Shown: piece after piece, positions 3,057 to 63,848 of the stretch
Layout: every line of letters starts with the position of its first letter
Position numbering within the stretch: position 1 is the stretch's first letter
From: Pseudomonas sp. F1_0610
Lineage (GTDB): Bacteria; Pseudomonadota; Gammaproteobacteria; Pseudomonadales; Pseudomonadaceae
DNA length: 64,000 nucleotides
Assembly: GCF_047470865.1 (NCBI RefSeq)
Contig: NZ_JAZDRH010000008.1
Coordinates: 37,165-101,164 of the forward strand
Direction of reading: 5' to 3'
The notes under the pieces: generated by a model
Told to the model about the DNA's origin: nothing
Database searches by the model: none
What the model saw: only the letters and a program-made list of their open reading frames with translations
Translations under genes and position numbers: made by a program

Positions 3057-4967
3057 ATGTCATTTTTAAAGCGCTTCGTGCTGTTATTTGTAGGTACCTG
3101 CCTTTTGGCCGGCTGTGCTGGTGTAAAAGTAGGCTCTGTTAGTAATAAAGACTACATTTCAAGCCGTCGAGGCGATGTCTTAACCACTAACCAGCTTAGT
3201 GGGGCCACTATTAATGCCCTAAGAATTATTGATGTAACAACTGATGTCTGTTTAAAAAACATCCTTGATTGCCAAGCTAAGATTTTAAGTAGTGCTGGTT
3301 TAGCCAATGAACAGCGTCTGTCCTCACTTTCTGAGATTTGGCTAAATCTGGCGCTGAAAAACAATACGAACGCCTCTTTAAGCCATGCTGCTCAAGTTGA
3401 TGCTTACATTGAAAGCGCTCGTTTTGCCTATGCTTATTTATTTATGACCCAGCGTGATACACGGGATAGAGCCTTAGAAGATCGCCAAACACAGGTGCGC
3501 GATTACTATAACTTTGCCTCACAACAAGCCTCCACTGGCCTATTTAAGTACTACTACAAGCAAATTGATAAAGACTTTGGCAGCCGTCAAGAATTTGCCT
3601 TAGACTCTGGTCGTTGGTCAATTATTGGGCGTTTAAATTACAGTCTACCTGAGGGGCAAGAGCTGCCTAGTGAGCTGATCCCTGCTGGCTCACTGACGTT
3701 TCAAGGTTTACGCAATCAATATCGGCGTGATGGCGTAGGCGCCGAGCTGGTGGCTGTAACAGCTAAGAAGGTAGTTTCTAATCAAAATGCAGATATACCT
3801 TATAGTGAAACCCCTTTTCCAGCAGTGACTACGGTATTGCGTTTTACTGGTGAATCCTTAGCTGAAGTGTTAAACACCCACGAGGTTATCTTAGAAGTAT
3901 TTGACCCATACCAAACCTCGCATATTGTTTTGGCTGGCAAAAGTGTACCTCTTGCGGCTAACTTTACCTCAGGTTACGGTTTATGGCTGGCTCGTTCTGG
4001 CTTCTCTAGCCAAGCATTATTGACGCTCATTGGCCGTGGCGAAGCATTAGAAAGCCCAAGGGTTTACTTAATGCAGCCCTATGATCCTAATCGTAAGGTG
4101 TTAATTATGCTGCACGGTTTGGCCAGCAGCCCAGAAGCCTGGATTAACGTTGCCAATGAGATCTTAGGTGATGAGCAACTTCGTCAACGCTACCAGATTT
4201 GGCAGGTGTATTATCCAACCAATATGCCTATTCCAATTAACAATTTGGAAGTGCATCAAGCCATAACAGCTACTTTTAAACACTTTGACCCACAAGGCAC
4301 AGCTCCTGCATCACAAGATATAGTGCTGCTAGGCCATAGCATGGGCGGTATTTTAGCGCGCTTGCTATCTTCATCTTCTGGCGATGGTGTATGGAATGCA
4401 TTACTAGAACAGTACCCTAAACGCGCCAAAAAAATAGAAAAAGAGCGAGCTAAAATAGAGCCTTATCTGTACTTTGAGCCTTTAACAGGTGTTACTCGTT
4501 CTATTTTTGTAGCGGCGCCGCATCAAGGCACGCCTTTTGCAGAAAATCGTATGGCGCGTTGGGCTTCCAATATTATTAAATTACCTGTTTCAGTAATGGG
4601 GCGCCTTAAAGAGATAGGGCAGATTTTAGTATCACCGACCTCAACCAGTACTGAACCATTGAACCGTTCTTTCAATAGTATTGATAATTTAAGCAATCAA
4701 GACTTTTTTATCCGTGTGTCTAGCCAAATTAGCATTTCACCTAAAGTGACTTATCATTCTATTATTGGCAACTACACACCAAAAGTTCCTTTAGAAGAGA
4801 GTAGTGATGGCGTTGTACCTTACCAAAGTTCACATTTGCCAGGTGCTGCTTCAGAAGTGGTGATTCCGTCATGGCACAGTGTGCAAGAAACGCCGCAGGC
4901 CATTATTGAGATTCGACGTATTCTGCATGAACACCTACTCCAACTTACTCCTCCTAGCAACCCTTAA
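3057..4967 (+). CDS. lipoprotein with C-terminal alpha/beta-hydrolase (esterase/lipase-like, PGAP1-like) domain
   Basis: Signal peptide plus lipobox (LLAGCAG). HG oxyanion segment (LIMLHGLASS) and nucleophile elbow GHSMGG in the C-terminal half. Confidence 0.8.
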   Translation: MSFLKRFVLLFVGTCLLAGCAGVKVGSVSNKDYISSRRGDVLTTNQLSGATINALRIIDVTTDVCLKNILDCQAKILSSAGLANEQRLSSLSEIWLNLALKNNTNASLSHAAQVDAYIESARFAYAYLFMTQRDTRDRALEDRQTQVRDYYNFASQQASTGLFKYYYKQIDKDFGSRQEFALDSGRWSIIGRLNYSLPEGQELPSELIPAGSLTFQGLRNQYRRDGVGAELVAVTAKKVVSNQNADIPYSETPFPAVTTVLRFTGESLAEVLNTHEVILEVFDPYQTSHIVLAGKSVPLAANFTSGYGLWLARSGFSSQALLTLIGRGEALESPRVYLMQPYDPNRKVLIMLHGLASSPEAWINVANEILGDEQLRQRYQIWQVYYPTNMPIPINNLEVHQAITATFKHFDPQGTAPASQDIVLLGHSMGGILARLLSSSSGDGVWNALLEQYPKRAKKIEKERAKIEPYLYFEPLTGVTRSIFVAAPHQGTPFAENRMARWASNIIKLPVSVMGRLKEIGQILVSPTSTSTEPLNRSFNSIDNLSNQDFFIRVSSQISISPKVTYHSIIGNYTPKVPLEESSDGVVPYQSSHLPGAASEVVIPSWHSVQETPQAIIEIRRILHEHLLQLTPPSNP

Positions 4968-4969
4968 AT

Positions 4970-5977
4970 ATGAACATCATGGCTTTGATACTTCGCATTT
5001 TGCTGTCACTCACCCTCCTAGTAATGAGTATATGGGGCGCTTTAGCCTTGCATTATCAAGAACCTTTGGAGCCTATTTGGACGCGTGCGTTAATTGCACT
5101 ATGGTCAATTCTTAGCCTGCTGTCTTTATTTAGTTTGTGGCGTAAACGTTATCTGATTAACTTCGGCTATTTCTTACTGATGTTCTGTATGTTGTTGCTC
5201 TGGTGGAGCAGTATTAAACCAACACACGAAAAAGATTGGGCTGACGACGTGATGCACATGGCCTCGGGGGAAGTTAAAGGCAATCTAGTTACTGTGCATA
5301 ACGTGCGCAACTTTAAATGGCGTGCGGAAGATGCCTATATTCCCAAATGGGAAACACGCACCTATGACCTTACTAAAATTCAATCTATTGACCTCTTTAC
5401 CTCACACTGGGGAATCGAGGCCATTGCCCATGTTTTGGTAACCTTTGGTTTTAGTGATGGGCAGTTCATTACCTTTACCGTTGAAATTCGCAAAACCAAA
5501 GGGCAATCTTTTGATTCGCTTGCTGGATTTTTCAAAGCTTACGAACTTAGCATTATTGCCACGGATGAGCGTGATGCGGTTGGTGTACGCCCTAATGTGC
5601 GTGGCGAAGATACCTATTTGTATCGCCTCAATATGCCAAAAGAAACCATGCGCCAACTATTTACGGCTTATATTAAGAAAGCCAATGATTTGGTCGAACA
5701 ACCACAGTTCTATCATACCATCACAGCCAACTGCACAACGATAGTGTTTGACATGATGGAGCATATCTCTGGAAAAATGCCTTTTGACTATCGTGTGTTG
5801 GCGACAGGTTACTTACCTGAGTATGTGCAAGACCTTAACGGTTTTTACGCAAAAGACGTACCATTAGAAGAATTAACACAAAAAGGCTTAATTAATACGC
5901 GTTCTAAAGCCGCTATGAATTTAAATACTTATTCACAGGACATTCGCCGAGATGTACCTGGCTGGCAAACGCCTTAA
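4970..5977 (+). CDS. DUF4105-like membrane protein (N-terminal TM helices; conserved NCTT motif)
   Basis: Three N-terminal TM segments. C-terminal domain ends ...YHTITANCTTIVFD, matching the NCTT signature I recall for DUF4105. Start is 3 nt after the upstream hydrolase stop. Confidence 0.6.
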   Translation: MNIMALILRILLSLTLLVMSIWGALALHYQEPLEPIWTRALIALWSILSLLSLFSLWRKRYLINFGYFLLMFCMLLLWWSSIKPTHEKDWADDVMHMASGEVKGNLVTVHNVRNFKWRAEDAYIPKWETRTYDLTKIQSIDLFTSHWGIEAIAHVLVTFGFSDGQFITFTVEIRKTKGQSFDSLAGFFKAYELSIIATDERDAVGVRPNVRGEDTYLYRLNMPKETMRQLFTAYIKKANDLVEQPQFYHTITANCTTIVFDMMEHISGKMPFDYRVLATGYLPEYVQDLNGFYAKDVPLEELTQKGLINTRSKAAMNLNTYSQDIRRDVPGWQTP

Positions 5978-6022: not shown

Positions 6023-6418
6023 TTAGAAGTTATATTTAATCTTCCACTGCCCATTATCTTTAATCAACATCCCTTTTTCGGTATGGGTTTTATTATTTTT
6101 ATAGATTATAAGCAAAGTAACATCGGCGCTCAGTTTATCTTCACTGTATTCAATACTGCTGAGCTTCATTGACTTAATACCACCATTTTTACTATTTTCA
6201 TACTCAATATTTTCTGAAAAAGCCCTTTCAACATTTTGCAGTACCTCTTCTGAAGTACCTTCAGGAAAGTAAATTAATCCGAGCACATCCTTGGTATTAT
6301 TGTTGATCACTCTAGCTTCTAAATCGCTAAATAGTTGTTCTGGCGTATCTTGATTCCCACCACAACCTGTTAATACAAAAATAGCCACTAACGCACTTAC
6401 AAACAGTTTTAATTTCAT
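6023..6418 (-). CDS. small lipoprotein (DUF4878-like), paralog 1
   Basis: Lipobox LTGCGG. 131 aa. C-terminus GQWKIKYNF resembles the other two small proteins flanking ycaO. Confidence 0.65.
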   Translation of the reverse strand: MKLKLFVSALVAIFVLTGCGGNQDTPEQLFSDLEARVINNNTKDVLGLIYFPEGTSEEVLQNVERAFSENIEYENSKNGGIKSMKLSSIEYSEDKLSADVTLLIIYKNNKTHTEKGMLIKDNGQWKIKYNF

Positions 6419-6453
6419 CTTTACTTCTCGTTCAAAAGTTAAACAACGGTTAG

Positions 6454-6888
6454 TTATTCAATCTTTATTTTCCAATTATTTTGACTTTTTTGCAGTAGCC
6501 ATTGTTCCTTAATTTTTTTATCGTGGGCATAAATAAAGATCACTTGAGCAATAGCCTGAGTATTGTCGGCTGCATACTGAATATCAGCTAACTCAATAGA
6601 AGCTAACGGCCCATGTTCAGCCAATAGCTGGTTGAATTTTAACTGTAGCCCTTGGCTAATTAAGCCAATTAACTCTTGGGGTACATCTTTATCTGAAACA
6701 TAGAAAAGCAACGCAGCTTTTTGCGTATCCTGTGTCACAACGGCTTCTTGATAAGCCTGAACTAAAGCTTCAGGTGTTTCTGTTACAGGCTGTGAACATG
6801 CACTCAGCAACAGCATTAAAAACAAGCTAATAAAGATTTTGCTTTGAGTTAACACACAACTTCTCCCTTGTTTGCAGCCCGCTGACAT
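6454..6888 (-). CDS. small lipoprotein (DUF4878-like), paralog 2; exact start uncertain
   Basis: Lipobox LLSACSQ. C-terminus NNWKIKIE. The N-terminal extension before the hydrophobic region suggests the true start may be an internal or alternative codon. Confidence 0.6.
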   Translation of the reverse strand: MSAGCKQGRSCVLTQSKIFISLFLMLLLSACSQPVTETPEALVQAYQEAVVTQDTQKAALLFYVSDKDVPQELIGLISQGLQLKFNQLLAEHGPLASIELADIQYAADNTQAIAQVIFIYAHDKKIKEQWLLQKSQNNWKIKIE

Positions 6889-6928
6889 AACAGCCTATCA
6901 GCGAGCCTGACCACTTCAACAAAATAGT

Positions 6929-8680
6929 TTAAATAGCGTTAGATTTAGCGAGCTGCAACTTTTCGTAGGCGGCAAGTAACGCTGCGTGCATGGGTAAATT
7001 GCTAAAATCCTCATGGATAGCGAATAATCCATGGAAACGTTGCTCACCTTCTATATGATCAAGTGCAGTTTCTAATACATCTTCACCATACATTCTGGCA
7101 AAAGCAGGTAAGTACTGCTGATAATCACGCTCTTCATCCAAAGCTAAGTTTAAGAGCTGAATTAGGCAGCGATAATAATTGTGGCGCTGCGCACTAAAGA
7201 CTGATTCATTAAATGCCTGCGCCCATTCTGCCCATGACAAAGCAGTGTCAAGGTCACCACCGGCTAAAGCCAGCATGGATTTTAGCTCACCGATGCGTAA
7301 GCTACTCCACGCATTATCTGAACCAAACGCCAGCCCTAATAATTCACCGATAAGCACAGCATCATCAAAGCCTTCTGCATCTAGCTGCTCAATTAAAGCT
7401 AAATACTGCTCTTCATCCCACGCTGTAGTCGGCAAATTTAAGAGCGTTTCACGTAAATGCTGCCCCATATTATTGTTTGCTAGGGTGAGGTCTTCTGTCA
7501 GATAGATTTCTGACAGGCTAGGCACCAGAATACGGCAAGCATCTACGCCCAGATGGTTATAATCAGCAATATAGACTTCGGCATTATTAGCCGAAAAAAT
7601 CGCCATTAAGTTAGCAAACTCTTCTTGCGTTGAACCTTTAAAGCTCCAGTCAACAAATGGATAATCAGCTTCTTCTTTAAATAAATCCCAAGATACTAAA
7701 CCACTAGAATCCGTAAAGTGTGTTTCAAGGTTGGTGTAGTCGGCTACTTGCTCGTTATCAAAGGTAGGCTCAGGGAACACATCCAACTGTTTCAAGCTAC
7801 GCCCTTGCAGTAACTCAGTTACGCTACGCTCTAAAGCAACACCAAAGTCTGGGTGGGCACCAAAAGAAGCAAAGCAGCTGCCATTATTTGGGTTGAACAG
7901 CACAACACAAATAACTGGAAACTCGCCACCTAAAGAGGCATCGTAAGCAAAGATAGGGAAACCTTGGTTTTCTAATGCGGCTATTGACTCTTGTACCTGT
8001 GGATAACGCGCTAAAACAGCTTCTGGAATTTCAGGCAGGCTAATGCCTTCACATAAAATACGGTTTTTGACACTACGCTCAAAAATTTCAGACATAGCTT
8101 GCACATGAGCTTCCGTAGGATTATTTCCCGCCGACATGCCGTTTGACACATAAAGATTACCAATAATATTCATTGGAATATAAATCACTTGCTGATCACT
8201 TTGGCGCACAAAAGGCAGCGCACAAATACCCCGCTGAGCATTATTCGATTGAATATCTACTAGGTTACTGGCTGTTAGTTCATTTTCTGGATCATAGAAC
8301 TCACGTAGAGCCTCGTCTAAAATGCCTTCTGGCAAACTATCATCAGCAGGAATAGCAAACCACTTTTCTTGGGGATAGTGTACAAAATCCCCTTCTGCAA
8401 TTTTTTTGCCTAAATAATAATCTGCAAAGAAATAGTTACAGGAAAGACGCTCAAGATACTCACCCAGTGCTGACGCCAGTGCAGCCTTTTTGGTCGCACC
8501 TTTACCATTGGTAAAGCACAAAGAGCATTGCGTATCACGAATATGCACTGACCACACATTAGGCACAGGATTCAGCCATGAAGCTTCTTCAATAGTAAAG
8601 CCCAAGGCTGAGAGCTGAGATTGGAAACGGGCAATACTATCTTCTAGGGCGGCATCTTTGCCAGGGATAAACGTCTGCAT
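6929..8680 (-). CDS. ycaO: YcaO family protein (ribosomal protein S12 methylthiotransferase accessory factor)
   Basis: 583 aa. N-terminus MQTFIPGKDAALEDSIARFQSQLSALGFTIEEASWLNPVPNVWSVHIRD is nearly identical to E. coli YcaO as I recall it. Confidence 0.9.
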   Translation of the reverse strand: MQTFIPGKDAALEDSIARFQSQLSALGFTIEEASWLNPVPNVWSVHIRDTQCSLCFTNGKGATKKAALASALGEYLERLSCNYFFADYYLGKKIAEGDFVHYPQEKWFAIPADDSLPEGILDEALREFYDPENELTASNLVDIQSNNAQRGICALPFVRQSDQQVIYIPMNIIGNLYVSNGMSAGNNPTEAHVQAMSEIFERSVKNRILCEGISLPEIPEAVLARYPQVQESIAALENQGFPIFAYDASLGGEFPVICVVLFNPNNGSCFASFGAHPDFGVALERSVTELLQGRSLKQLDVFPEPTFDNEQVADYTNLETHFTDSSGLVSWDLFKEEADYPFVDWSFKGSTQEEFANLMAIFSANNAEVYIADYNHLGVDACRILVPSLSEIYLTEDLTLANNNMGQHLRETLLNLPTTAWDEEQYLALIEQLDAEGFDDAVLIGELLGLAFGSDNAWSSLRIGELKSMLALAGGDLDTALSWAEWAQAFNESVFSAQRHNYYRCLIQLLNLALDEERDYQQYLPAFARMYGEDVLETALDHIEGEQRFHGLFAIHEDFSNLPMHAALLAAYEKLQLAKSNAI

Positions 8681-9202: not shown

Positions 9203-10129
9203 TCACAGTCTATCTTTCTGTAACGCAGAGTAAAGCATATCTAAAAAGGCGCGTGTTTTGGCTGGTAGTAATTTACGTCCAGGATAAACAGCCCATGCTG
9301 GACTACTGGGAAAACACCATTTAGGCAGAATACGTACTAGTTTACCTTGCAGTATGTCAGGCGTGACATAGTCTTCTGGCACCGCAATAATGCCTCGCCC
9401 TGCTTTGCCCAAACGCATAAGAATTTCTAGTGAATTAGCGGTTAGTTGCCCTGGCGGAACATGTTTCCAACGTTCTTCACCACAGCACAAGTCCCAAGCA
9501 GCTGGCTCGCCAGTGCGGGCTAGCAGCCGCACGGCCTGATGATGAAATAGCTCATCTGGCGTTTGTGGCTCACCATGCTCATAAATATAGCTAGGAGCTG
9601 CATACAAACCAAATGACACATCTAACAGATGCTTGGCTACTAACAGTGAATCATCAGGTAACGCGCCCATACGCACGGCGACGTCAAAGCCCTCACTGAG
9701 TAAATCAACCCGACGGGCCGAAAGATCTATTTCTAACAGCACCTTAGGGTGCATGGCGGTAAAGGCCGCTAACATGTCAACCAACATTAAATTGGCAAAA
9801 TCACTCGGCATAGACACGCGCAACCGACCGGAAGGCTGTGCTTGACGATGCAAACCTAAATCTTGGGCTGCTTGTAATTCATGCGCGATATGTTTGGCAT
9901 GTTCTAGTACTTGCTCTCCTAGCTCTGTTACCGATAGACGTCTGGTAGTGCGTAATAATAGCCGCTCCCCCATCTGCTCTTCTAGCAGACTGATACGACG
10001 AGAAACCGTCGATTTAGGCATTTTTAGCTGCTCACTGGCTTGTGTAAAGCTACTGGCTTCCACCACAGCGGCAAAAATAATAAGGTCATCCGCACTTAAT
10101 TGTTCCAAATTTGAAACATTGATACCCAT
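9203..10129 (-). CDS. LysR-family transcriptional regulator
   Basis: N-terminal HTH (LEQLSADDLIIFAAVVEASSFTQASEQLKMPKSTVSRRI) plus a LysR substrate-binding domain. Divergent from azoR. Confidence 0.85.
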   Translation of the reverse strand: MGINVSNLEQLSADDLIIFAAVVEASSFTQASEQLKMPKSTVSRRISLLEEQMGERLLLRTTRRLSVTELGEQVLEHAKHIAHELQAAQDLGLHRQAQPSGRLRVSMPSDFANLMLVDMLAAFTAMHPKVLLEIDLSARRVDLLSEGFDVAVRMGALPDDSLLVAKHLLDVSFGLYAAPSYIYEHGEPQTPDELFHHQAVRLLARTGEPAAWDLCCGEERWKHVPPGQLTANSLEILMRLGKAGRGIIAVPEDYVTPDILQGKLVRILPKWCFPSSPAWAVYPGRKLLPAKTRAFLDMLYSALQKDRL

Positions 10130-30114: not shown

Positions 30115-31335
30115 CTAACCTTTCACACAGACTACTTGGCGTAATGTATGCACAATTTCCACAAGGTCAGATTGTGCTTTCATCACGGCGTCAATGTCTT
30201 TATAAGCCATAGGTGTTTCGTCAATAACATCTTCGTCTTTTCGACACTCCACATGAGCCGTTGCCTTTTTATGGTCATCAATACTGAACACCGATTTTGC
30301 TTTGGTGCGACTCATAACACGGCCAGCACCATGGCTGCATGAGCAAAAGCTTTCTTGGTTACCTAAGCCGCGCACAATAAAGCTTTTTGCGCCCATGGAG
30401 CCAGGAATAATACCCAACTGTCCAGATCGCGCAGAAACGGCACCTTTACGGGTTACTAGCACATTCTCACCAAAGTGATTTTCACGTTGCACATAGTTAT
30501 GGTGGCAGTTCACTGCCTCTAAACGACTGACAAAGGGTTTAGTGATAACTGATGCCACTGCCGCCAATGTATGTTCCATCATAATTTCACGGTTTACACG
30601 GGCGAAGTTTTGCGCCCAGTCGACTGCTTCAATGTAGTCATCAAAGTAGCTTGTACCTTCTGGCAAGTACGCTAAGTCTTTATCGGGCAAGTTAATCATG
30701 TAGCGTTCCATTTCTTGACGCGCCAGCCCAATAAAGTGTGTACCAATAGCATTACCAACACCGCGTGAACCGCTATGCAGCATTACCCAAACAGTGTTTT
30801 CTTCATCCAAACACAGCTCAATAAAGTGATTCCCTGTTCCCAATGTACCAAGGTGCTTATGGTTATTGGTTTTCGCTAAATGAGGGTACTTTTGCGTTAT
30901 TTGCTCAAACTTTGGTAATAACGCTGCCCATTGTTCATCAATATAGTTTGAGGTTTTATTCCAAGCACCTACATCACGGCGAGAACGTCCAGCGGAACGT
31001 CCGTGAGGTACCGCCTTCTCAATGGCAGAGCGGATTGCAAATAGATTATCTGGTAAATCACTCGCGGTTAATGAAGTGCGTACTGCCATCATTCCACAAC
31101 CAATATCTACACCAACGGCTGCTGGAATAATAGCGCCCTTGGTTGGAATCACGCTGCCAATGGTTGAGCCTTTTCCTAAGTGTACATCTGGCATGACTGC
31201 CAAGTGCTTAAAGATAAATGGCATACGAGCTGTGTTTAACAACTGCTCTTTGGCTTTATCTTCAACTGGCACGCCATTGGTCCACATACGGATAGGGGCG
31301 CCGCCTTTTTCAAACAAGACTTCATGGTTAATCAT
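30115..31335 (-). CDS. rtcB: RNA-splicing ligase RtcB (3'-phosphate/5'-hydroxyl RNA ligase)
   Basis: 406 aa. Near-identical blocks to E. coli RtcB (MPFIFKHLAVMPDVHLGKGSTIGSVIPT, GTGNHFIE, SFCSCSHGAGR, LRQVVCVKG). ATGA overlap with the upstream gene. Confidence 0.95.
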   Translation of the reverse strand: MINHEVLFEKGGAPIRMWTNGVPVEDKAKEQLLNTARMPFIFKHLAVMPDVHLGKGSTIGSVIPTKGAIIPAAVGVDIGCGMMAVRTSLTASDLPDNLFAIRSAIEKAVPHGRSAGRSRRDVGAWNKTSNYIDEQWAALLPKFEQITQKYPHLAKTNNHKHLGTLGTGNHFIELCLDEENTVWVMLHSGSRGVGNAIGTHFIGLARQEMERYMINLPDKDLAYLPEGTSYFDDYIEAVDWAQNFARVNREIMMEHTLAAVASVITKPFVSRLEAVNCHHNYVQRENHFGENVLVTRKGAVSARSGQLGIIPGSMGAKSFIVRGLGNQESFCSCSHGAGRVMSRTKAKSVFSIDDHKKATAHVECRKDEDVIDETPMAYKDIDAVMKAQSDLVEIVHTLRQVVCVKG

Positions 31336-32669
31336 TTTGCTATTCCTTTTAAATTCACTAAGCCGTTAAGTACTTGGTCTAAACCGCCAAATACGGAAAT
31401 TTTGTCGATACGCTCACACACACGCTCTAAGGTTTCTAACTCTTTTAAACGCAGCGCCACAGGGTTGTTTTCCATCACTTTGGCGGTATTAAGCAAAGAG
31501 CGGGTGGCCGCTGTTTCTTCGCGACGACGAATCACATTGGCTTGTGCTGCTTTTTCAGCCTCTATCACGCTAGATAAAATGGTACGCATTTCACCTGGTA
31601 AGATAATATCTTTTACGCCCATTGAGCCTATCTCTAGGCCGTATTGCGGAATACTCTGGCTAAGCTGTTCCGTCACCTGCTGATCGATAATTTCTTTATT
31701 TTCTAGCAGCTCATCAAGGGTGCGCGTACCTACTATTTCACGCAGTGCAAATTGTACTTCACGGTATAAAAAAGCCTCTGCATCTTGCATTGCTGCCAAC
31801 GCAGTTAGCACATCGACATAACGCCAGTTGATGACGAAATTCAGGCGGATGCTGACTTTGTCCTTCGTTAGGATTTCCTGGCCCGACATATCCAACACGC
31901 GCAAGCGTGTATCCACGGACTGCACAGCTACCGTATTGTGATATGTCCAAAAACCATAACTACCTGCTGGTAGTACCTGTTTTACTTCATCATCAACTTT
32001 TAACACACCCAAATGCCATGCTGGCACTGTAGACAATAAAAGACTCTTGCTGTCGATAGCTTTTTTATTCATCAATGGGCGCAAGCCTTTAAGCAGTTCA
32101 GGTTTGATCTCTAACTCAGCTAACGAAACAAACTCAACTTGCTGCTGGCTACCATTTTTCCACCATAAATAGCGGCTATTAGGTTCTAACAGTTCAGTTA
32201 AAACACCATCGACATAGCGCAAGCCAACTTGATGCTCAGCAACCTGCACGTCAATGCAATATTGCTTTACCCAATCAGCATGCTGATGGCGCAAGTTGTT
32301 CGCTAGCTCTTGACTAATGGCTCGCGTATTTAAGTGATGAACTTCATGTTGCTGTTCAATGCCATTTTTCCAATACAAATGTTGACTTGCCGGCTCAAGC
32401 ACTTGGGTCAAACGTCCATCAACATAACGTAAAGCAATCTGGTTATTATTTAAATTCACTTCAATGCAATACTTCTCTACCCATGCTTTATGGAAGCGGC
32501 GCAACTCTTTAGCTACGTCATTGGGCACAGGTTGATCTAAATTAAATACAACATATGCTGGCTTAATTAGCCAAAAGCGATATTCGCCTGTAGTTAATAC
32601 ATGGCTAAAACCATCCTTGTTTCGAACAAGTGCAATTTCGTTATTCTTTATAGTTACTTTATTCAACAT
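31332..32669 (-). CDS. cytoplasmic SPFH/band-7 (slipin-like) protein with tandem N-terminal repeats
   Basis: C-terminal roughly 230 aa is a typical SPFH domain (LTKDKVSIRLNFVINWRYVD...GLEIGSMGVKDIILPGEMR...AEKAAQANVIRRRE). The N-terminus has three repeats of a roughly 65-aa unit (IALVRNKDGFSHVLTTGEYRFW / IALRYVDGRLTQVLEPASQHLYWKNG / VGLRYVDGVLTELLEPNSRYLWWKNG). No TM segment. Confidence 0.8.
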   Translation of the reverse strand: MLNKVTIKNNEIALVRNKDGFSHVLTTGEYRFWLIKPAYVVFNLDQPVPNDVAKELRRFHKAWVEKYCIEVNLNNNQIALRYVDGRLTQVLEPASQHLYWKNGIEQQHEVHHLNTRAISQELANNLRHQHADWVKQYCIDVQVAEHQVGLRYVDGVLTELLEPNSRYLWWKNGSQQQVEFVSLAELEIKPELLKGLRPLMNKKAIDSKSLLLSTVPAWHLGVLKVDDEVKQVLPAGSYGFWTYHNTVAVQSVDTRLRVLDMSGQEILTKDKVSIRLNFVINWRYVDVLTALAAMQDAEAFLYREVQFALREIVGTRTLDELLENKEIIDQQVTEQLSQSIPQYGLEIGSMGVKDIILPGEMRTILSSVIEAEKAAQANVIRRREETAATRSLLNTAKVMENNPVALRLKELETLERVCERIDKISVFGGLDQVLNGLVNLKGIAK

Positions 32670-32856
32670 TATTGATTCCTTTTAAATTAACAAAGCAGCG
32701 GACTGTGGTGCGAAACATAACGGGGGCTTGCCTAAATCTCAGGTTTGCTTGCGTTTTATTCGGCAGTTTTATCGGCTGCTTCGGTGTTGTGTGTCACTTA
32801 GCTCACAACTAAATACAAATTGATATAGTCCAATTAAAAAGCCTTGGAGACTTTTT

Positions 32857-32990
32857 TGGTGCCGTTTGTAGGAGTCGAACCTACTCTTTCATGCAGAACA
32901 CAAAGCAGAAACACCATCGCGTCGCTTTGAGCTACCTAAGTTCAAGAACTTATGGTCAAGGCAAAAGCAAAAGAAATACCTCTAACAGCA
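32857..32990 (-). ncRNA. tRNA-like RNA element (candidate Y-RNA/YrlA-like or tRNA-derived leader) at the 5' end of the rtc operon transcript
   Basis: The minus strand reads ...GUAGG-UUCGACU-CCUAC-AAACGGC-A-CCA: a canonical T-arm (GGTTCGACTCC), a 7-nt acceptor 3' strand, a discriminator and CCA. A 5' segment GCUGUU near the predicted TSS can pair with AACGGC. No canonical D-arm or anticodon arm was found. Sits between the sigma54 promoter and the first CDS. Boundaries are approximate. Confidence 0.45.
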
Positions 32991-33000
32991 AAATATATAG

Positions 33001-33016
33001 AGCGAAAAGCGTGCCA
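33001..33016 (-). promoter_or_regulatory. sigma54 (-24/-12) promoter for the rtc operon
   Basis: The minus strand reads TTGGCACGCTTTTCGCT, i.e. TGGCACG-N4-TCGC with correct GG-N10-GC spacing. It faces rtcB and is divergent from the sigma54 activator gene rtcR. Confidence 0.6.
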
Positions 33017-33133
33017 ACTTTTAAAAATTAAAATTAACTATTTGATTTATATAAGTATTTTATTTTGTAGCGACTTTTTATCTTGTCTTGGTTATAGTTG
33101 CATTTCTATCTTTTTAGATAACTATTTATAAAT

Positions 33134-34714
33134 ATGGATAAAAAATCTAACATTCTTATTGGATTACTAGGCGTTACACTAGATATGGCGGGTAGGCACA
33201 GGATTAATCGTTGGCGCCCTAGTTATTCCCTTTGTGCCCAACCAGACTTGCCTATTACACGCTTTGAAATGCTGTATCAGCCTCATTATTCGCGGTTAGC
33301 CCATCAAGTTAAGCGAGATATAGAACTACACAGCCCCCACACGCATGTGCAGCTTGTGCAAGTAGATATTGAAGATCCATGGGATTTAGAAGAGGTTTAC
33401 AACCACTTATTGGATTTTTGCCAGCAATATTCTTTTGATACAGATAACGAAAATTACCTGCTCAACATCACTACAGGCACCCATGTTGCGCAAATTTGCT
33501 GGTATCTGCTTAATGAAGCGCATTATATTCCTGCCCGTTTAATTCAAAGCTCACCCGCTAAAAACCTACCAGAACGAGGCTATGGCACTTATTCAATTAT
33601 CGACCTTGATTTAAGCCGTTACGACAAAATTGCCAGCCGTTTTTCTCAGCAAATTGACAACTCAATTGCGTTACTTAAAGACGGCATAGCCACGCGTAAC
33701 GTGCGCTTTAACAGCCTGATTGATCAAATAGAAAAAGTCGCGGTACGCTCACAAGCTCCCATGCTATTAACAGGGCCAACAGGTGCAGGTAAATCCTTTT
33801 TAGCACAGCGTATTTTTCAACTTAAGAAACAACGTCAAGCCTTAAAGGGTAAGTTCGTTTCAATAAACTGCGCCACTTTACGTGGTGATAACGCCATGTC
33901 TAGCTTATTTGGTCACAGCAAAGGCGCCTTTACTGGTGCTATTAGTGCTCGCCAAGGCTTACTGAAAGAAGCTGATCAAGGGGTTTTATTTTTAGATGAA
34001 ATAGGCGAGCTTGGGCTAGATGAGCAAGCCATGTTATTAACGGCCATCGAAAACAAATGCTTTATGCCTTATGGCAGTGATAAGACGGTTGAAAGCGACT
34101 TTCAGTTAATTGCTGGCACTAACCGCCATCTTCCTGATGAAGTGGCTGCTGGGCGTTTTCGGGAAGATTTATACGCACGGATAAATCTTTGGTCATTTCG
34201 CTTATTGGGTTTAGCTGAGCGCCCTGAAGATATTGAACCCAACCTTGATTACGAGCTACGCAAATACGAACAACAGCATCAAGTCAATATTCGTTTTAGC
34301 CAAGAAGCACGTCAGCGCTATCTGGCCTTTGCTTGCAGTAAAGCTGCTTTATGGAAAGGTAACTTTCGTGAACTAAGCGCTTCTATTACGCGCATGGTAA
34401 CCCTAGCAGAAGCCAGCTGTATTAGTGAAGAGCAAGTCAACGAAGAAATAGCTCGGTTACGTGCTGATTGGTACGCCAGCGTACCTGCCACTACAATTGA
34501 TCTTCCTGTAGAGCATGAACTGGACTTATTCGATCAGTATCAGCTACAAGGCGTACTAGACACATGCCGCCGCGCCAGCAGTTTATCCGATGCAGGCCGC
34601 CAGCTATTTGCTATATCACGCCAACAAAAAGCCAACCCAAATGATGCCGATCGACTGCGTAAATATTTGGCGAGGTTCGGTTTGGATTGGCAAGGACTAG
34701 AACAACAGCCTTAG
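33134..34714 (+). CDS. rtcR: sigma54-dependent transcriptional regulator RtcR (CARF-like N-domain + AAA+ sigma54-interaction domain)
   Basis: 526 aa, collinear with E. coli RtcR (WRPS..LC, HITTGTHVAQICWYLL, GPTGAGKSFLA, GAFTGA, ESDFQLIAGTNR). Confidence 0.9.
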   Translation: MDKKSNILIGLLGVTLDMAGRHRINRWRPSYSLCAQPDLPITRFEMLYQPHYSRLAHQVKRDIELHSPHTHVQLVQVDIEDPWDLEEVYNHLLDFCQQYSFDTDNENYLLNITTGTHVAQICWYLLNEAHYIPARLIQSSPAKNLPERGYGTYSIIDLDLSRYDKIASRFSQQIDNSIALLKDGIATRNVRFNSLIDQIEKVAVRSQAPMLLTGPTGAGKSFLAQRIFQLKKQRQALKGKFVSINCATLRGDNAMSSLFGHSKGAFTGAISARQGLLKEADQGVLFLDEIGELGLDEQAMLLTAIENKCFMPYGSDKTVESDFQLIAGTNRHLPDEVAAGRFREDLYARINLWSFRLLGLAERPEDIEPNLDYELRKYEQQHQVNIRFSQEARQRYLAFACSKAALWKGNFRELSASITRMVTLAEASCISEEQVNEEIARLRADWYASVPATTIDLPVEHELDLFDQYQLQGVLDTCRRASSLSDAGRQLFAISRQQKANPNDADRLRKYLARFGLDWQGLEQQP

Positions 34715-34735: not shown

Positions 34736-36916
34736 CTATGTAGCTAAGCGCTGAATAGCTTCATGAGCCTCTTCTTCGCCTTCATCATGCGCCAGTTGAT
34801 AAAGCGCCAAAGCACGCTCAAGATTTTTATCCACACCCTGCCCTGTTTCATACATAACTGCTAGATTGAACGCCGCCTGTGGATGTTTTTGCTCTATGGC
34901 TTTTTCATACCAGAATAAGGCTTGCTGGTAATCAACAGGTATTTCGTCGCCATGTTGGTACATCCAACCAAGGCTGTATTGTGCGCTGGCATCGCCCTGA
35001 TCAGCGGCCATTTTGTACCAGTGCATAGCCAAGTCAACATTACGCTCAGTGCCATGCGCATAGTCATACAGCAGTGCAAGGTTATACTGAGCATCGGCAT
35101 CTCCCTTTTCAGCAGCTTTGTTATACCAAAACAGAGCTTGTTGATAATCTTGTGCGACACCTTCACCCTCTTCATATAAACGCGCTAACCTAAACTGTGC
35201 AAGAACATGCCCGTTTAATGCTGCTTTGTTATACCACTCACTGGCTTGGGTTAAATCTTGTGCAACACCATCAGCATGTTGGTAGATATGGCCTAGATTG
35301 TACTGTGCTTTAGCATCATTTTGCGCTGCTGCGGCCTTATACCATTCGCGTGCTAGGGCCTTATTTTGTTCTACACCTTTACCTGAGGCATACGAGATAG
35401 CAAGATTATTCTGCGCTTCGGCAAAACCCAGCGCAGCTGCTTTTGTATAGTACTTTAGCGCCTGCTGAGAATCCTGTGTAACACCTTTACCTTCTTCGTA
35501 GAACACCCCTAGGTTATACAGCGCATTGGCTACATTTTGCTCGCCAGCAGCATGGTACCACTTAAGAGCAGTAGCCATATCAGGCTGAACATGCTCACCA
35601 TTTTTGTACATGACGGCAAGGTTAAATTGCGCTTCACCATGCCCTTGCTGTGCTGCTTGTTCAAACCAACTAAAGCCTTTGGCTAAATCAACAGTAACGC
35701 CTCGACCTTCCGTATAGATAAGTCCTAAAGCATTTTGAGCATCTGCATCCTTTTGCTCTGCCGCTTTCAGATACCATTGCAAAGCTAGTTGGCTATCTTG
35801 CGCAACGCCTTTTCCATCACGATAACTTTCGCCCAACAAACATTGTGCTGCGGCATTACCTTGGGCGGCCAAACGGTGCGCCAAAGTCACTGCTTTTAGG
35901 TAAGCGTCATTGGCTAGCTGAGTGTTTTGTGCAACACCCTGACCTTTTTGGTACAAATCACCCAGCATAAACAGTGCAATAAGGTCATCCTGCTCAGCTG
36001 CTTGCTTAAACCAAGCAAAGGCTTCAACCCAATCAATGGCAACTTGCTTTCCTTCACTGTAGATAAAACCTAGACTGCGCTGAGCTATGGGGCTATTCTG
36101 GTCTGCTGCCGCCTGATAGAGCTGTATGGCTTTGGCGATGTCTTGCTTAACTCCTTTGCCTTGCTGGTACAAAGAGGCTAATAAACGTTGCGCATCCGCA
36201 TCACCTTGAGCGGCAGCCTTTTCATACCAAAAAGCTGCTTTTTCATAGCTTTGCTCTACGCCTGTACCTTCACGATGCAGGTCGCCCAGCATACATTGCC
36301 CATCAGCATCACCATTCCTAGCAGCGCGCTGTAACCAATATGCAGCTTTGCTATAACTTTGCTCTACGCCTTTTCCATCACGATATAGCCAGCCCAACAT
36401 CGCCTGTGCGCCTGCATCTTTTTGATTGGCGGCCAGCAACAGCCAGCGTTGTGCTTCAATAAGGTTCTGAGCTACGCCAGTGGCCTCCAGATAACAAGTG
36501 CCTAGTGCATATTGCGCAGGCGCGTAATCTTGCTGAGCCGACAGCTGAAACCAATGCACCGCCTGCTCCGCATTCTGTGCTACACCTTCTCCAGCCTCAT
36601 AGCAACAGCCCAGCCTATATTGTGCCTGCACATGATTGCGCTGAGCCGCTTGGGTTAGCCAAAAAGCTGCATTTTTATAGTCGTTTTGCTCTCTATACAG
36701 AACAGCTAACGCCCATTGTGCTGATAAGTTGTGTTTTTTACTTGCTGTAAGAAATAAAGCCAGCGCTTGTTGGCGCTCAGTGGCACTACATTCTCCACCA
36801 TTGTAAAGGTCAACACCTTGCGCATACTCTTTTTCCGCTGCAACCCTCTTTTGTTCTGTAGGGACTCGTGCGAAGAAGGCTTTCATCGTGTTAATTAGTT
36901 GATCTCCAAATCCCAT
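34736..36916 (-). CDS. Sel1-repeat (SLR) protein, about 18 repeats, no signal peptide
   Basis: 726 aa almost entirely made of roughly 36-aa Sel1-like repeats (A.Q..LG..Y..G.GV.QD...A..WY.KAA.QG). Convergent with rtcR, 21-bp gap. Confidence 0.8.
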   Translation of the reverse strand: MGFGDQLINTMKAFFARVPTEQKRVAAEKEYAQGVDLYNGGECSATERQQALALFLTASKKHNLSAQWALAVLYREQNDYKNAAFWLTQAAQRNHVQAQYRLGCCYEAGEGVAQNAEQAVHWFQLSAQQDYAPAQYALGTCYLEATGVAQNLIEAQRWLLLAANQKDAGAQAMLGWLYRDGKGVEQSYSKAAYWLQRAARNGDADGQCMLGDLHREGTGVEQSYEKAAFWYEKAAAQGDADAQRLLASLYQQGKGVKQDIAKAIQLYQAAADQNSPIAQRSLGFIYSEGKQVAIDWVEAFAWFKQAAEQDDLIALFMLGDLYQKGQGVAQNTQLANDAYLKAVTLAHRLAAQGNAAAQCLLGESYRDGKGVAQDSQLALQWYLKAAEQKDADAQNALGLIYTEGRGVTVDLAKGFSWFEQAAQQGHGEAQFNLAVMYKNGEHVQPDMATALKWYHAAGEQNVANALYNLGVFYEEGKGVTQDSQQALKYYTKAAALGFAEAQNNLAISYASGKGVEQNKALAREWYKAAAAQNDAKAQYNLGHIYQHADGVAQDLTQASEWYNKAALNGHVLAQFRLARLYEEGEGVAQDYQQALFWYNKAAEKGDADAQYNLALLYDYAHGTERNVDLAMHWYKMAADQGDASAQYSLGWMYQHGDEIPVDYQQALFWYEKAIEQKHPQAAFNLAVMYETGQGVDKNLERALALYQLAHDEGEEEAHEAIQRLAT

Positions 36917-61099: not shown

Positions 61100-62479
61100 G
61101 TGACTAAACCACTCACCCAGCTTGAAACTCAGTGGCTCTGTGAGGCAGTTCGCCTACGAGAGGAACAGACTGGTATCTTAGAAGATAGCCAAGCCTGTCG
61201 ACAAGCCATAGCCCAAGCGTCTACGCTGCAGCAGCGCATAGCGTTAAGAGCACTCTTGCTGGCTCAACGTGACGGGCTGACACAAGCCCTGCAACAGTGG
61301 TTACAAGGTGCAAGGTTAGCATCATGGTTAATGATATTGTTAGCGCTTCTTACAGGTATTGGCTTAGCCAAGGCCGCACTATTTGATAACACTCAGGTTA
61401 ATATATTTTGGACTATAGGTTGCTTGTTAGGTCTGAACTTTCTTAGCCTTATCTTGTGGAGCATGAATTTTACTTTATCAAACAACAGTACTGATTCTCT
61501 TGCCCAGTTATGGCTCTGGCTTAGTGGCAAGCTCGCACGTGATGCCAAATCTCTCCAACTTGCTCCTGCACTATTACTTTTATTACAACGTCATTATGCT
61601 TTGCGCTGGGGCATTGGTCGCATTATTCATGGCTGGTGGTGTTTAGCATTACTGAGTAGCCTAATAACAGTTCTGCTTCTACTAAGCACTAAACGCTATG
61701 GCTTTGTCTGGGAGTCAACCATTATTGCAAGCGATAGCTTTGTTTGGCTTGTGAATACATTAGGATATTTACCCAGCCTGCTCGGCTTTGCTGTCCCCTC
61801 TGCTGAACTCATTGCACACAGTGGACAAAGTATACAAATTGAAGAAACCGCACGCCATGCTTGGGCCAGTTGGTTAGTTGGAGCACTGGTTATTTATGGC
61901 CTACTTCCCCGCATGCTGCTCTGGTTAATTTGCCAGTGGCGCTGGCTACACACTACTCAGCACATACAGATCAATCCGAATTTGCCTACTTGGCTAGAAT
62001 TAGCACAACGCCTAATGCCATCAAGCGAGCGCATGGGCGTAATAGATCAAGCACCAAAAAAAATTATTCGCAGCGTTTCAGGTGTGGGAAACCAGAATAA
62101 CTATACTAATTTAATAGCCTCAATCGAGATTGATCCTGTTCGTCAATGGTCCGTGGAAAGCGCAGCGGCACATAACGCTGGCGCTCTTGATACACGTGAA
62201 CAACGTCAACTATTACTAGATCAATTAAGCCTGACTCCAGTGCAACGTTTGCTAATTATATGTGATCCTTTACGATCAGTAGACCGCAGTACACTCAACC
62301 TGATAGCAGAACTCTCACATTATGCTGCACAGACACGCGTTTGGTTGCTAGAAGCACCCTCAGGATATCAGTTAGATGCAGACCGTCTTGATGACTGGCA
62401 AAAATCACTTGATAAACTAGGTATACAAAACAGCACACACTCTCTTTTATCTTGGCTGGAACATGGTTATGACGTCTAA
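61100..62479 (+). CDS. DUF2868-like membrane protein
   Basis: GTG start with GAGGT Shine-Dalgarno. 459 aa with several TM helices. Overlaps the downstream GTPase gene by 17 nt. Confidence 0.6.
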   Translation: MTKPLTQLETQWLCEAVRLREEQTGILEDSQACRQAIAQASTLQQRIALRALLLAQRDGLTQALQQWLQGARLASWLMILLALLTGIGLAKAALFDNTQVNIFWTIGCLLGLNFLSLILWSMNFTLSNNSTDSLAQLWLWLSGKLARDAKSLQLAPALLLLLQRHYALRWGIGRIIHGWWCLALLSSLITVLLLLSTKRYGFVWESTIIASDSFVWLVNTLGYLPSLLGFAVPSAELIAHSGQSIQIEETARHAWASWLVGALVIYGLLPRMLLWLICQWRWLHTTQHIQINPNLPTWLELAQRLMPSSERMGVIDQAPKKIIRSVSGVGNQNNYTNLIASIEIDPVRQWSVESAAAHNAGALDTREQRQLLLDQLSLTPVQRLLIICDPLRSVDRSTLNLIAELSHYAAQTRVWLLEAPSGYQLDADRLDDWQKSLDKLGIQNSTHSLLSWLEHGYDV

Positions 62480-63848
62480 TTCACCATTAAAGCTTGCCGT
62501 TGTTGGTCATACCAATGTAGGTAAGACCTCATTAATGCGCACCTTAACCCGTGATGTTGATTTTGGACAAATAGCCCAAACCGCCAGTACAACCCGTCAT
62601 GTTGAAGGTGCTCGCTTGTTTGTACAAGGGCAGATAGTGCTTGAGCTTTATGATACCCCTGGCCTAGAAGATCCCATTGCGTTATACGATTATTTAGAAC
62701 GCTTAAAACCCAACACAGATAGGCCAGATGGCCCTACTCAAATCAGCATTTTTTTAAAGACCAGCGAGTCAAAACAACGCTTTGAGCAAGAAGGTAAAGT
62801 GCTTCAACAGCTACTCGCCAGTGATGCTGGGCTTTATGTTATTGACGCACGCGAACCTGTTTTAAGCAAATACCGTGACGAACTTGCCATACTCGCCATG
62901 TGTGGAAAACCTTTACTGCCCGTTTTAAACTTTATTCATGCGCCCGAGCAGCGTGAGCATGAATGGCGAGAGGTGCTAGCCCGTGTTGGTCTACACGCCC
63001 ATGTGCGCTTTGATACTGTTGCCCCACCTATTGATGGGGAAAAGCGTCTATATGATAACTTAGGTATCTTGCTTGAAAACTACCGCCCAGAGTTAGAACG
63101 CCTAATAACTGACCATCAACAACAAGTAAAACAACGCCGTGAAACAGGATATCAACTTGTAGCCGAGCTTCTTATTGACGTGGCCGCCTGTCGTCGCAGC
63201 ACAAACGACAATAATAGCAAACAAACTATTCAAGACATGCATGAATCCGTACGCAAGCGTGAACAACGCTGTGTGGAGGCTTTACTACGTCTGTATGCTT
63301 TTCGGCGTGATGATGTCACAGCCACAGATCTACCCTTACAAAATGGCCGCTGGGGGGATGACCTATTTAACCCTGCCAGTCTTAAGCACATGGGAATTAA
63401 GCTAGGCAGTGGTATGGCCGCCGGTGCTGCGGCCGGGGCGGGTATTGACCTTTTAACAGGGGGAGCATCATTAGGCGCGGCAACCGTTCTTGGCGCTCTA
63501 ATCGGCGGCACAACCCAAACCATTCGAAAATACGGTAATCGCCTAAAACTTAAACTGCAAGGACACCGAGAATTAAGCGTTGAAGATAATATTTTACGCT
63601 TATTAGCTTTACGGCAGCAGTGGCTATTACAAGCCTTAGAACAGCGCGGGCATGCTGCACTGAATAAATTAGAGGTGGTGATTCCTAATGACCATCAATG
63701 GCGTGAAGGCAAACTACCTACAGCTGTTGAAAATGCCCGTGCTTTCCCTGAGTGGTCCTGCTTAAATCCTGCATTCAATCCACAGGACACAGAGCGTTTA
63801 ATGAGCATTCAAAGTTTACAACAAGCTTTACTGCAAAAACCCACGTAA
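62463..63848 (+). CDS. DUF3482-like GTPase with C-terminal glycine-zipper membrane segment
   Basis: G1 VVGHTNVGKTSL and G3 DTPG motifs. C-terminal GSGMAAGAAAGAGIDLLTGGASLGAATVLGALIGG. Confidence 0.65.
   Translation: MVMTSNSPLKLAVVGHTNVGKTSLMRTLTRDVDFGQIAQTASTTRHVEGARLFVQGQIVLELYDTPGLEDPIALYDYLERLKPNTDRPDGPTQISIFLKTSESKQRFEQEGKVLQQLLASDAGLYVIDAREPVLSKYRDELAILAMCGKPLLPVLNFIHAPEQREHEWREVLARVGLHAHVRFDTVAPPIDGEKRLYDNLGILLENYRPELERLITDHQQQVKQRRETGYQLVAELLIDVAACRRSTNDNNSKQTIQDMHESVRKREQRCVEALLRLYAFRRDDVTATDLPLQNGRWGDDLFNPASLKHMGIKLGSGMAAGAAAGAGIDLLTGGASLGAATVLGALIGGTTQTIRKYGNRLKLKLQGHRELSVEDNILRLLALRQQWLLQALEQRGHAALNKLEVVIPNDHQWREGKLPTAVENARAFPEWSCLNPAFNPQDTERLMSIQSLQQALLQKPT

Follow-up and report, generated by a model that had tools for sequence, protein, structure and literature searches.

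The rtc locus of Pseudomonas sp. F1_0610 is a probable, somewhat divergent member of the described SPFH/Band-7-type RNA-repair modules

We analyzed an rtc RNA-repair locus in a 64,000-nt stretch of DNA (the window) from Pseudomonas sp. F1_0610, contig NZ_JAZDRH010000008.1. In this locus, rtcR is divergent from a predicted sigma54 promoter that is followed by a tRNA-like RNA, a gene for an SPFH/Band-7 protein, and the RNA ligase gene rtcB. Similar loci have been described before. In Pelobacter carbinolicus, Aklujkar et al. (2012) reported a divergent rtcR, a "mutant tRNA" (Pcar_R0061), a stomatin-like gene (Pcar_2837), rtcA1, and rtcB; the RNA is non-translational, and the authors suggested that it serves as a substrate or a guide (PMC3543383). 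The order of rtcR, tRNA derivative, stomatin-like gene, and rtcB is that of the window. However, the Pelobacter locus has rtcA, its RNA keeps the cloverleaf, and its protein was described as a membrane protein.

The second described system is that of Burroughs and Aravind (2016). According to Wang et al. (2018; bioRxiv 10.1101/312249), RtcB in certain bacteria adjoins a Band-7 protein, along with a predicted tRNA that is associated with band 7 (b7a-tRNA), and this RNA is computationally predicted to swap with YrlA in some genomes. PMC13404743 also summarizes the Band-7, b7a-tRNA, and RtcB system. It states that Burroughs and Aravind proposed a scaffold or cofactor role for the Band-7 protein, by analogy with Ro60-Y RNA and with MVP and the vault. 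As in the window, the Band-7 gene adjoins rtcB, and a predicted tRNA-like noncoding RNA (ncRNA) lies upstream. The published b7a-tRNA closely resembles an authentic tRNA, whereas the window RNA is an approximately 134-nt non-cloverleaf molecule in which only the T-arm, the acceptor stem, and the ACCA end are tRNA-like. In addition, the window has no gene for the RlaP nucleotidyltransferase, which is frequent in relatives of this type of system. The abstract of Burroughs and Aravind reportedly names SPFH/Band-7 modules, "a novel tRNA-like molecule," and RlaP.

Three further rtc loci are useful for comparison. The P. aeruginosa SPFH gene PaFlo8 (PA14_60630) sits inside an rtc locus (PMC13086221), between rtcR and rtcB as in the window. 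Unlike the window, that locus also has RlaP and rtcA, and the accessible parts of PMC12776372 and PMC13086221 mention no RNA element in it. In Salmonella, the stable RNA YrlA comes from the rsr-yrlBA-rtcBA operon (PMC4201824). This operon shares with the window RtcR/sigma54 control and a tRNA-mimicking ncRNA plus a scaffold gene ahead of rtcB. However, its ring-forming scaffold is the TROVE protein Ro60 instead of an SPFH protein, and rtcA is present. In YrlA, a T arm is followed by a closed acceptor stem-loop and then a D arm, and a 5' GNCGAA(N)G motif binds Ro. Neither trait is apparent in the window RNA, in which we saw no GNCGAA and whose open acceptor stem ends in ACCA; in some enterobacterial relatives, a closed hairpin does follow the T arm. 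The rtcR/rtcBA locus of E. coli K-12 shares RtcR, a sigma54 promoter, and RtcB (68% nucleotide identity) with the window, but it has rtcA, no SPFH gene, and no counterpart of the window's tRNA-like RNA. An analogy between the SPFH system and the eukaryotic vault, composed of MVP, vault RNA, and the TROVE protein TEP1, is already in print (PMC13404743).

We consider it probable, at roughly 0.78, that the window locus belongs to the already described SPFH/Band-7-type Rtc RNA-repair module. It is a somewhat divergent member of the published kind. On the minus strand, from 33016 to 30115, the order is sigma54 motif, about 320 nt of structured noncoding sequence, SPFH gene, and rtcB. The divergent rtcR (33134..34714, plus strand) encodes a CARF-type sensor domain, a sigma54 AAA+ activator, and lid and helix-turn-helix regions. 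Pfam assigns RtcR to aa 4-184 (1.5e-72) and Sigma54_activat to aa 187-353 (4.3e-49), and the NCBIfam equivalog RNA_repair_RtcR scores 776 bits against a cutoff of 650. The rtcB gene (30115..31335, minus strand) encodes the RNA 3'-phosphate/2',3'-cyclic phosphate-5'-OH ligase and matches Pfam RtcB over its full length (E=3.7e-135). Its product is 69-76% identical in amino acids to the RtcB proteins encoded after the SPFH gene in relatives. An initial annotation of the DNA, made from the sequence, had named both genes, and these domain matches bear it out.

The same annotation placed a sigma54 promoter at 33001..33016 (minus strand), and this assignment holds as well. The -24/-12 motif, TGGCAC-N5-TCGC(T) as read from the sequence, occurs as TGGCACGCTTTTCGC (equivalent to TGGCACgctttTCGC) at 33016..33002(-), and it is the sole TGGCACN5TYGC match in the 64-kb window. 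A single match is not significant by itself, because 0.45 chance matches are expected. However, 155 of 163 related sequences carry the same motif upstream of the SPFH gene. It is position and conservation, not the single occurrence, that carry the assignment of this predicted promoter. Counted from the -12 GC, the predicted transcript start is at about 32990. A scan for sigma70 promoters and terminators gave nothing above chance.

The related loci came from scans with the SPFH protein, which gave 80 genome loci of 166 confirmed relatives and 80 metagenome loci of 167. The genomes belong to Enterobacterales, Orbales, Neisseriaceae, and Ventosimonas (Pseudomonadales), and the pooled set comprises 162 related loci (163 sequences). 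As the initial annotation had supposed, rtcR, promoter, tRNA-like RNA, SPFH gene, and rtcB form a conserved unit, and the SPFH gene is no insertion. Of the first 80 loci, 77 have rtcR divergent from the SPFH gene, and about 58 have rtcB immediately downstream of that gene. The 162 loci divide into 82 with RtcR, SPFH, and RtcB, 40 with RtcR and SPFH, 8 with RtcB and SPFH, and 32 with SPFH only; some loci are truncated by contig ends. The window SPFH protein is 43-57% identical to its relatives, with best matches of 56% in the genome scan and 57% in the metagenome scan, and an exact-protein look-up for closer relatives found no match. The only close relative is the Logan contig L081, in which the SPFH protein is 85% identical, the RNA is 97% identical, and the gene order is the same. 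The rtcR-SPFH intergenic region is 95.1% identical to that of L081. By comparison, the spacer between rtcB and LysR is 75% identical, and at third codon positions the identity is 73-79%. The difference from these neutral proxies points to strong purifying selection on the intergenic region.

We also looked for the genes that accompany rtcB elsewhere. No RtcA domain and no TROVE domain was found by a Pfam scan of the 24 window open reading frames of at least 286 aa, and tblastn with E. coli RtcA found no match in the window. Thus, the absence of rtcA and of a Ro/TROVE gene, as first annotated, is upheld. On the question whether the SPFH gene is anti-correlated with rtcA and rsr, tblastn with E. 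coli RtcA found no match in any of the 162 SPFH loci. For TROVE, the few recurrent neighbor clusters that were scanned in relatives contained none.

The SPFH/Band-7 (slipin-type) gene occupies 31332..32669 on the minus strand and encodes 445 aa, identical (100%) to an NCBI record named "slipin family protein [Pseudomonas sp. F1_0610]." Pfam Band_7 covers aa 214-385 (E=6.2e-28). Three tandem repeats of about 70 aa (aa 5-70, 71-140, and 141-213; nt 32031..32657) precede the SPFH domain proper (aa 214-356), which is followed by long C-terminal helices (aa 359-442), so that the domain leads into a coiled-coil helix as in stomatin and slipin. The repeats are clearly related to one another (z=14.5 for the first and second, z=24.7 for the second and third). 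Each is predicted to fold as beta5-alpha, with a weak likeness to the first strands of the SPFH domain (z about 4.5). Alignment by tblastn suggests that relatives, mostly of about 375 or 520 aa, have one repeat fewer or one more. No hydrophobic or transmembrane segment was found, the maximum 19-residue Kyte-Doolittle value being 1.09. In the AlphaFold2 model (confidence score pLDDT 83), the N terminus appears as soluble beta-rich repeats rather than a hydrophobic hairpin anchor. The initial annotation of an SPFH protein with N-terminal repeats, joined to rtcB by an ATGA overlap, is thus confirmed: at 31335..31332 the rtcB start codon overlaps the SPFH stop codon by 4 nt.

Stomatin is the top fold match of the model. 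The full-length model also gave alignments with MVP that are 500-560 columns long (E from 3.8e-12 to 1e-8). The repeat region modeled alone (pLDDT 88.6) had no significant fold match in the PDB, MVP included, with a best E of 2.2e-3. The idea that these are vault repeats was therefore not confirmed.

SPFH proteins are generally membrane scaffolds, and PMC13086221 treats PaFlo8 as one of nine such proteins of P. aeruginosa. The window protein could accordingly be pictured as an ordinary stress or membrane-microdomain protein whose gene just happens to lie in an rtc locus, without any part in RNA repair. We regard this as the least probable of the explanations considered, one with hardly any chance of being right. 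The protein has no transmembrane segment or hydrophobic hairpin, and no NfeD-type partner was noticed. Its linkage to RtcR, RtcB, RlaP, or the RNA 2'-phosphotransferase KptA is kept across four orders, and the gene has conserved RNAs of its own. Moreover, deleting the repressor TrcR in Anabaena derepresses a slipin gene as well as rtcB (PMC10272220).

The noncoding region between the promoter and the SPFH gene contains two structured RNAs. RNA-1, the band 7-associated tRNA-like/Y-like RNA, spans 32857..32990 on the minus strand, about 134 nt, with a minimum free energy (MFE) of -39.1 kcal/mol (z=-2.1). Its T-arm GTAGGTTCGACTCCTAC at 32884..32868 is perfect (GUAGG-UUCGACU-CCUAC). The 3' side (32867..32857) consists of a 7-nt acceptor strand, the discriminator A, and an encoded CCA (32859..32857). 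The 3' AACGGC can pair with 5' GCUGUU at 32989..32984, right at the predicted sigma54 start, to form an acceptor-like stem that encloses three non-tRNA hairpins. RNA-1 is not a cloverleaf tRNA. The element first annotated as tRNA-like therefore stands with respect to its T-arm, acceptor stem, and ACCA, but not as a cloverleaf. RNA-1 differs from the L081 sequence by 1 substitution in 134 nt, at the discriminator.

To compare RNA-1 with more distant relatives, we used a covariance model (R1) built from 35 enterobacterial RNAs only. In the window it gave one match, at 32852..32965, with 21.5 bits (E=2.3e-5). The alignment runs hairpin to hairpin, GUGUUCUG to the UU-bulged helix of the enterobacterial RNAs, and T-arm to T-arm. 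R1 matched 81 of 84 sources, once each, with all SPFH locus types represented, and it had no match in the canonical E. coli rtcR-rtcBA locus (L163). A GGTTCGAnTCC T-loop lies downstream of the promoter motif in 154 of the 163 related sequences. The R1 match and the shared hairpins and T-arm indicate that RNA-1 is a divergent member of one SPFH-linked RNA family.

The members of this family differ among orders. In Orbales, Neisseriaceae, and Ventosimonas, a true cloverleaf tRNA precedes the SPFH gene (Rfam tRNA score, 55-68 bits), with odd and variable anticodons (AAT, ATC, CGG, CAG, ATT, AGG, and ACC). In Enterobacterales, the equivalents are about 130-155 nt long and consist of a first hairpin, a long hairpin, the T-arm, and then a 3' element. 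The long hairpin has an invariant UU bulge (CGG-CRC / GYG-UU-CCG), and past the T-arm the RNA either ends in an open acceptor, CACC(A/U), or closes into a hairpin as in YrlA. Compensatory changes occur in 18 of the 21 predicted pairs. Rfam had no match to the enterobacterial RNA and, among the relatives, recognized only the true tRNAs of Orbales, Neisseria, and Ventosimonas. The family thus spans real tRNAs to Y-RNA-like molecules. As a separate observation, several Orbales loci (L065, L066, L069, L075, and L078-L080; Gilliamella/Orbus) have an extra conserved noncoding stretch of about 190 nt between the sigma54 promoter and the true b7a-tRNA. Within this stretch (locus coordinates about 5420..5640) is a GCGAAU motif, which recalls the GNCGAA of Y RNAs. 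The Orbales b7a-tRNA anticodons vary even among close relatives (CGG, CAG, AGG, ACC, and ATC).

Several results count against assigning the locus to the described module. ARAGORN found 0 tRNA genes in the window, and Rfam gave no tRNA (RF00005) match in 32500..33300 even at E<=10. RNA-1 has neither a D-loop GG nor an anticodon loop, and its acceptor stem contains one A-A mismatch. This stem also has no covariation support, because its only close relative is nearly identical. An encoded CCA is found at the tRNA position in only 27 of 150 relatives. The match to Burroughs and Aravind (2016) is made through two summarizing papers. Finally, the abstract of PMC9650030 reports that RtcA and RtcB are both necessary for RtcR activation in E. 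coli; therefore, activation in a locus without RtcA may differ here.

The second RNA, the RNA-2 leader, lies at 32687..32786 on the minus strand. It is an approximately 100-nt rod-like hairpin (P1-P3-P4-P5) with conserved internal loops, and its 3' end is about 17 nt before the ribosome-binding site. Two smaller hairpins separate it from RNA-1. An A/U-rich hairpin followed by U5 (32836..32856, minus strand) is directly 3' of the CCA and is part of the MFE structure. From its sequence it is a possible leaky terminator or processing site, and relatives have, judged by eye, a comparable hairpin that overlaps the 3' end of the RNA or comes after it. Hairpin A (32786..32809, minus strand) has a GUUGUG/CACAAC stem and a 12-nt loop, AGCUAAGUGACA, which resembles the loop GCGCAGUCAGCA of the equivalent hairpin in relatives when the two are aligned.

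We tested the leader structure on a MAFFT alignment of 34 diverse relatives, excluding the window lineage, with 20 pairs specified. Standard pairs filled 91.2% of the cells, compared with 39-52% when the partners were slid by 1-3 columns. Compensatory changes occurred in 19 of the 20 pairs (10-14 when slid). The covariation score was 0.575, against at most 0.21 for the slid pairings, and none of 500 shuffles reached the observed value. A model (R2) built from this alignment gave one full-length match in the window, at 32.2 bits (E=1.2e-6). It gave a single match in each of 82 of the 83 sources, and every match that was checked lay just upstream of the SPFH gene; the matches include an E. coli island without rtcR and rtcB. 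Rfam 15 had no match for the leader, in the window or in relatives, and it had no known RNA family in the window, at the gathering cutoff or at E<=10.

Of the elements at this locus, only this second structured RNA is possibly new. Tentatively, and with the odds somewhat against it, the leader together with hairpin A may represent a class of RNA that is undescribed and specific to RNA-repair modules of the SPFH/Band-7 type. The leader accompanies the SPFH gene even in loci that have no rtcR and rtcB, such as the E. coli island between yjbD and lysC. It could be the binding site by which an SPFH assembly autoregulates or recruits its own mRNA; alternatively, by analogy with YrlB beside YrlA, it could be a second cofactor RNA. 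Viewed by eye, P1 has a C-C mismatch between covarying pairs (alignment columns 10/134 and 14/130) that is kept in the window and in most Enterobacteriaceae, and an internal loop, CCGR / UUCG, is nearly invariant. Both features could be protein-contact sites. We also considered mimicry of 16S rRNA by the enterobacterial leader, which shares CCUGCGG with 16S helix 45. This was rejected, because the CCUGCGG strand covaries and differs in Proteus, in Orbales, and in the window.

The arrangement of these elements raises another explanation, in which both RNAs are one long structured 5' untranslated region. It would act in cis on SPFH-rtcB through stability, attenuation, or autoregulation, and there would be no stable, trans-acting tRNA-like RNA. 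RNA-1, hairpin-U5, hairpin A, and the leader are indeed contiguous behind a single sigma54 promoter, the leader immediately precedes the ribosome-binding site in 82 of 83 sources, and the encoded CCA is missing in many relatives. However, the element is a bona fide tRNA in Orbales and Neisseriaceae, and cells normally excise tRNAs. In the window, the ACCA end is followed by hairpin-U5, and the related Salmonella YrlA is a stable RNA (PMC4201824). Because the predicted fold leaves the ribosome-binding site unpaired, no sequestering switch is obvious. We therefore judge a purely cis-acting leader to be unlikely, although it is the strongest of the competing explanations, and favor a module of the described type with a separate tRNA-like RNA.

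The genes next to the SPFH gene vary among relatives. The commonest extra gene encodes the RlaP nucleotidyltransferase (PF10127). RlaP comes directly after SPFH, and rtcB is missing, in Brenneria, Lonsdalea, Hafnia, the Klebsiella oxytoca group, and several Citrobacter. The interval between yjbD and lysC holds a slipin-RlaP pair in 1637 of 5426 complete E. coli genomes (about 30%); neither rtcR nor rtcB adjoins this pair, so the chromosomal RtcR may control it in trans. One example of this island is in strain R32_14_1F (L082; NZ_CP074749.1, 4559169-4572869; locus coordinates 6213..8428). It contains a sigma54 motif, RNA-1 (R1, 90 bits), the leader (R2, 76 bits), the slipin gene, an RlaP-type nucleotidyltransferase gene, and a convergent zeta-toxin family gene.

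The initial annotation could not map the locus to a described Rtc variant. It proposed a previously undescribed RtcR-controlled module with the SPFH protein as the obligate partner of RtcB. The absence of rtcA and rsr, the ATGA coupling of the SPFH gene and rtcB, and the absence of an Rfam family for either RNA are in line with that proposal. However, the architecture was published in 2012, 2016, 2018, and 2026, as the Pelobacter locus, the Burroughs and Aravind system, and PaFlo8 illustrate. The ATGA overlap is peculiar to the window lineage, and relatives have SPFH-rtcB gaps of 10-60 nt. SPFH is not an obligate RtcB partner, because SPFH-RlaP loci without rtcB exist; in many genera, and in 30% of the complete E. 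coli genomes, the SPFH gene and its RNAs are found without rtcB. A new module of that kind is thus very improbable, and membership in the described module remains the reading that we prefer.

Two other arrangements were noted among the relatives. In Xenorhabdus (L004, L024, and L033), a KptA/Tpt1 RNA 2'-phosphotransferase gene (PF01885, 3.6e-49; about 9660..10210 in L004) follows SPFH-rtcB-RlaP, which makes a four-gene RNA-repair operon. The locus of Neisseriaceae bacterium ESL0693 (L076; about 5630..5700 and 9424..9451) has two T-loop elements, with no sigma54 motif and no divergent rtcR. It also has a diverged RtcB on the opposite strand, a nearby CRISPR repeat, and a weak leader match (23.5 bits).

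How might the window module work? By orthology, RtcR would sense RNA damage through its CARF domain. The signal for Salmonella RtcR is tRNA fragments with 2',3'-cyclic phosphate ends. Once activated, RtcR would open the sigma54 promoter at 33016..33001, whose motif, position, and conservation are observed. The order and conservation of the downstream elements are likewise observed, and they are consistent with one transcript from about 32990 that would carry RNA-1, a leaky hairpin-U5, the approximately 100-nt leader, SPFH, and rtcB, with predicted ends and processing. The tRNA-like RNA would probably be set free as a small, stable molecule. The T-arm, the acceptor stem, and the ACCA that it carries correspond to the parts of tRNA that tRNA-processing and tRNA-binding proteins recognize. 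The SPFH protein, having no transmembrane segment, would probably assemble into a soluble ring or cage, by analogy with other SPFH proteins. Protein and RNA together would then be a scaffold or cofactor for RtcB, the role that Burroughs and Aravind proposed, and RtcB would reseal broken tRNA or rRNA. It is established biochemistry that RtcB uses both 3'-phosphate and 2',3'-cyclic phosphate ends, and RtcA would therefore be dispensable.

The gene convergent with rtcR (34736..36916, minus strand) encodes a 726-aa protein that is almost entirely Sel1 repeats and has no signal peptide and no transmembrane segment. The initial annotation counted 18 repeats, but Pfam finds 16 repeat stretches. Its suggestion that the gene might belong to the rtc unit was not borne out. 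The syntenic relative L081 has a radical-SAM gene in that place, and the first 80 loci contain no Sel1 match. We therefore regard the Sel1 gene as unrelated to the unit, because it is absent from L081.

The G+C content of the window is 40-44% throughout, and that of the rtc locus equals that of its flanks. With 42-43%, the window lies far below typical Pseudomonas, and the name Pseudomonas sp. F1_0610 that the identical NCBI protein bears may be a misclassification, this content being atypical for the genus. Elsewhere in the window, a 636-aa open reading frame at 3057..4967 (plus strand) has no Pfam family at E<=1e-5 and neighbors a gene for an Lnb_N-domain protein (4970..5977). At 61100..63848 (plus strand), overlapping DUF2868 and DUF3482/MMR_HSR1 GTPase genes form a conserved pair.

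A role for SPFH/Band-7 proteins and tRNA-like RNAs in bacterial RNA repair has been a purely computational proposal since 2012-2016, and the window locus adds a divergent member. Across four orders, the module keeps a fixed order of sigma54 promoter, T-arm RNA, structured leader, and SPFH gene, and it excludes RtcA in all 162 relatives sampled. Both properties make the proposal easier to test, as does the version without adjacent rtcR or rtcB that is present in about 30% of complete E. coli genomes, which offers a tractable host. Should the soluble SPFH protein enclose RtcB and RNA in a vault-like shell, an idea already published, this would bear on the origin and function of the eukaryotic vault.

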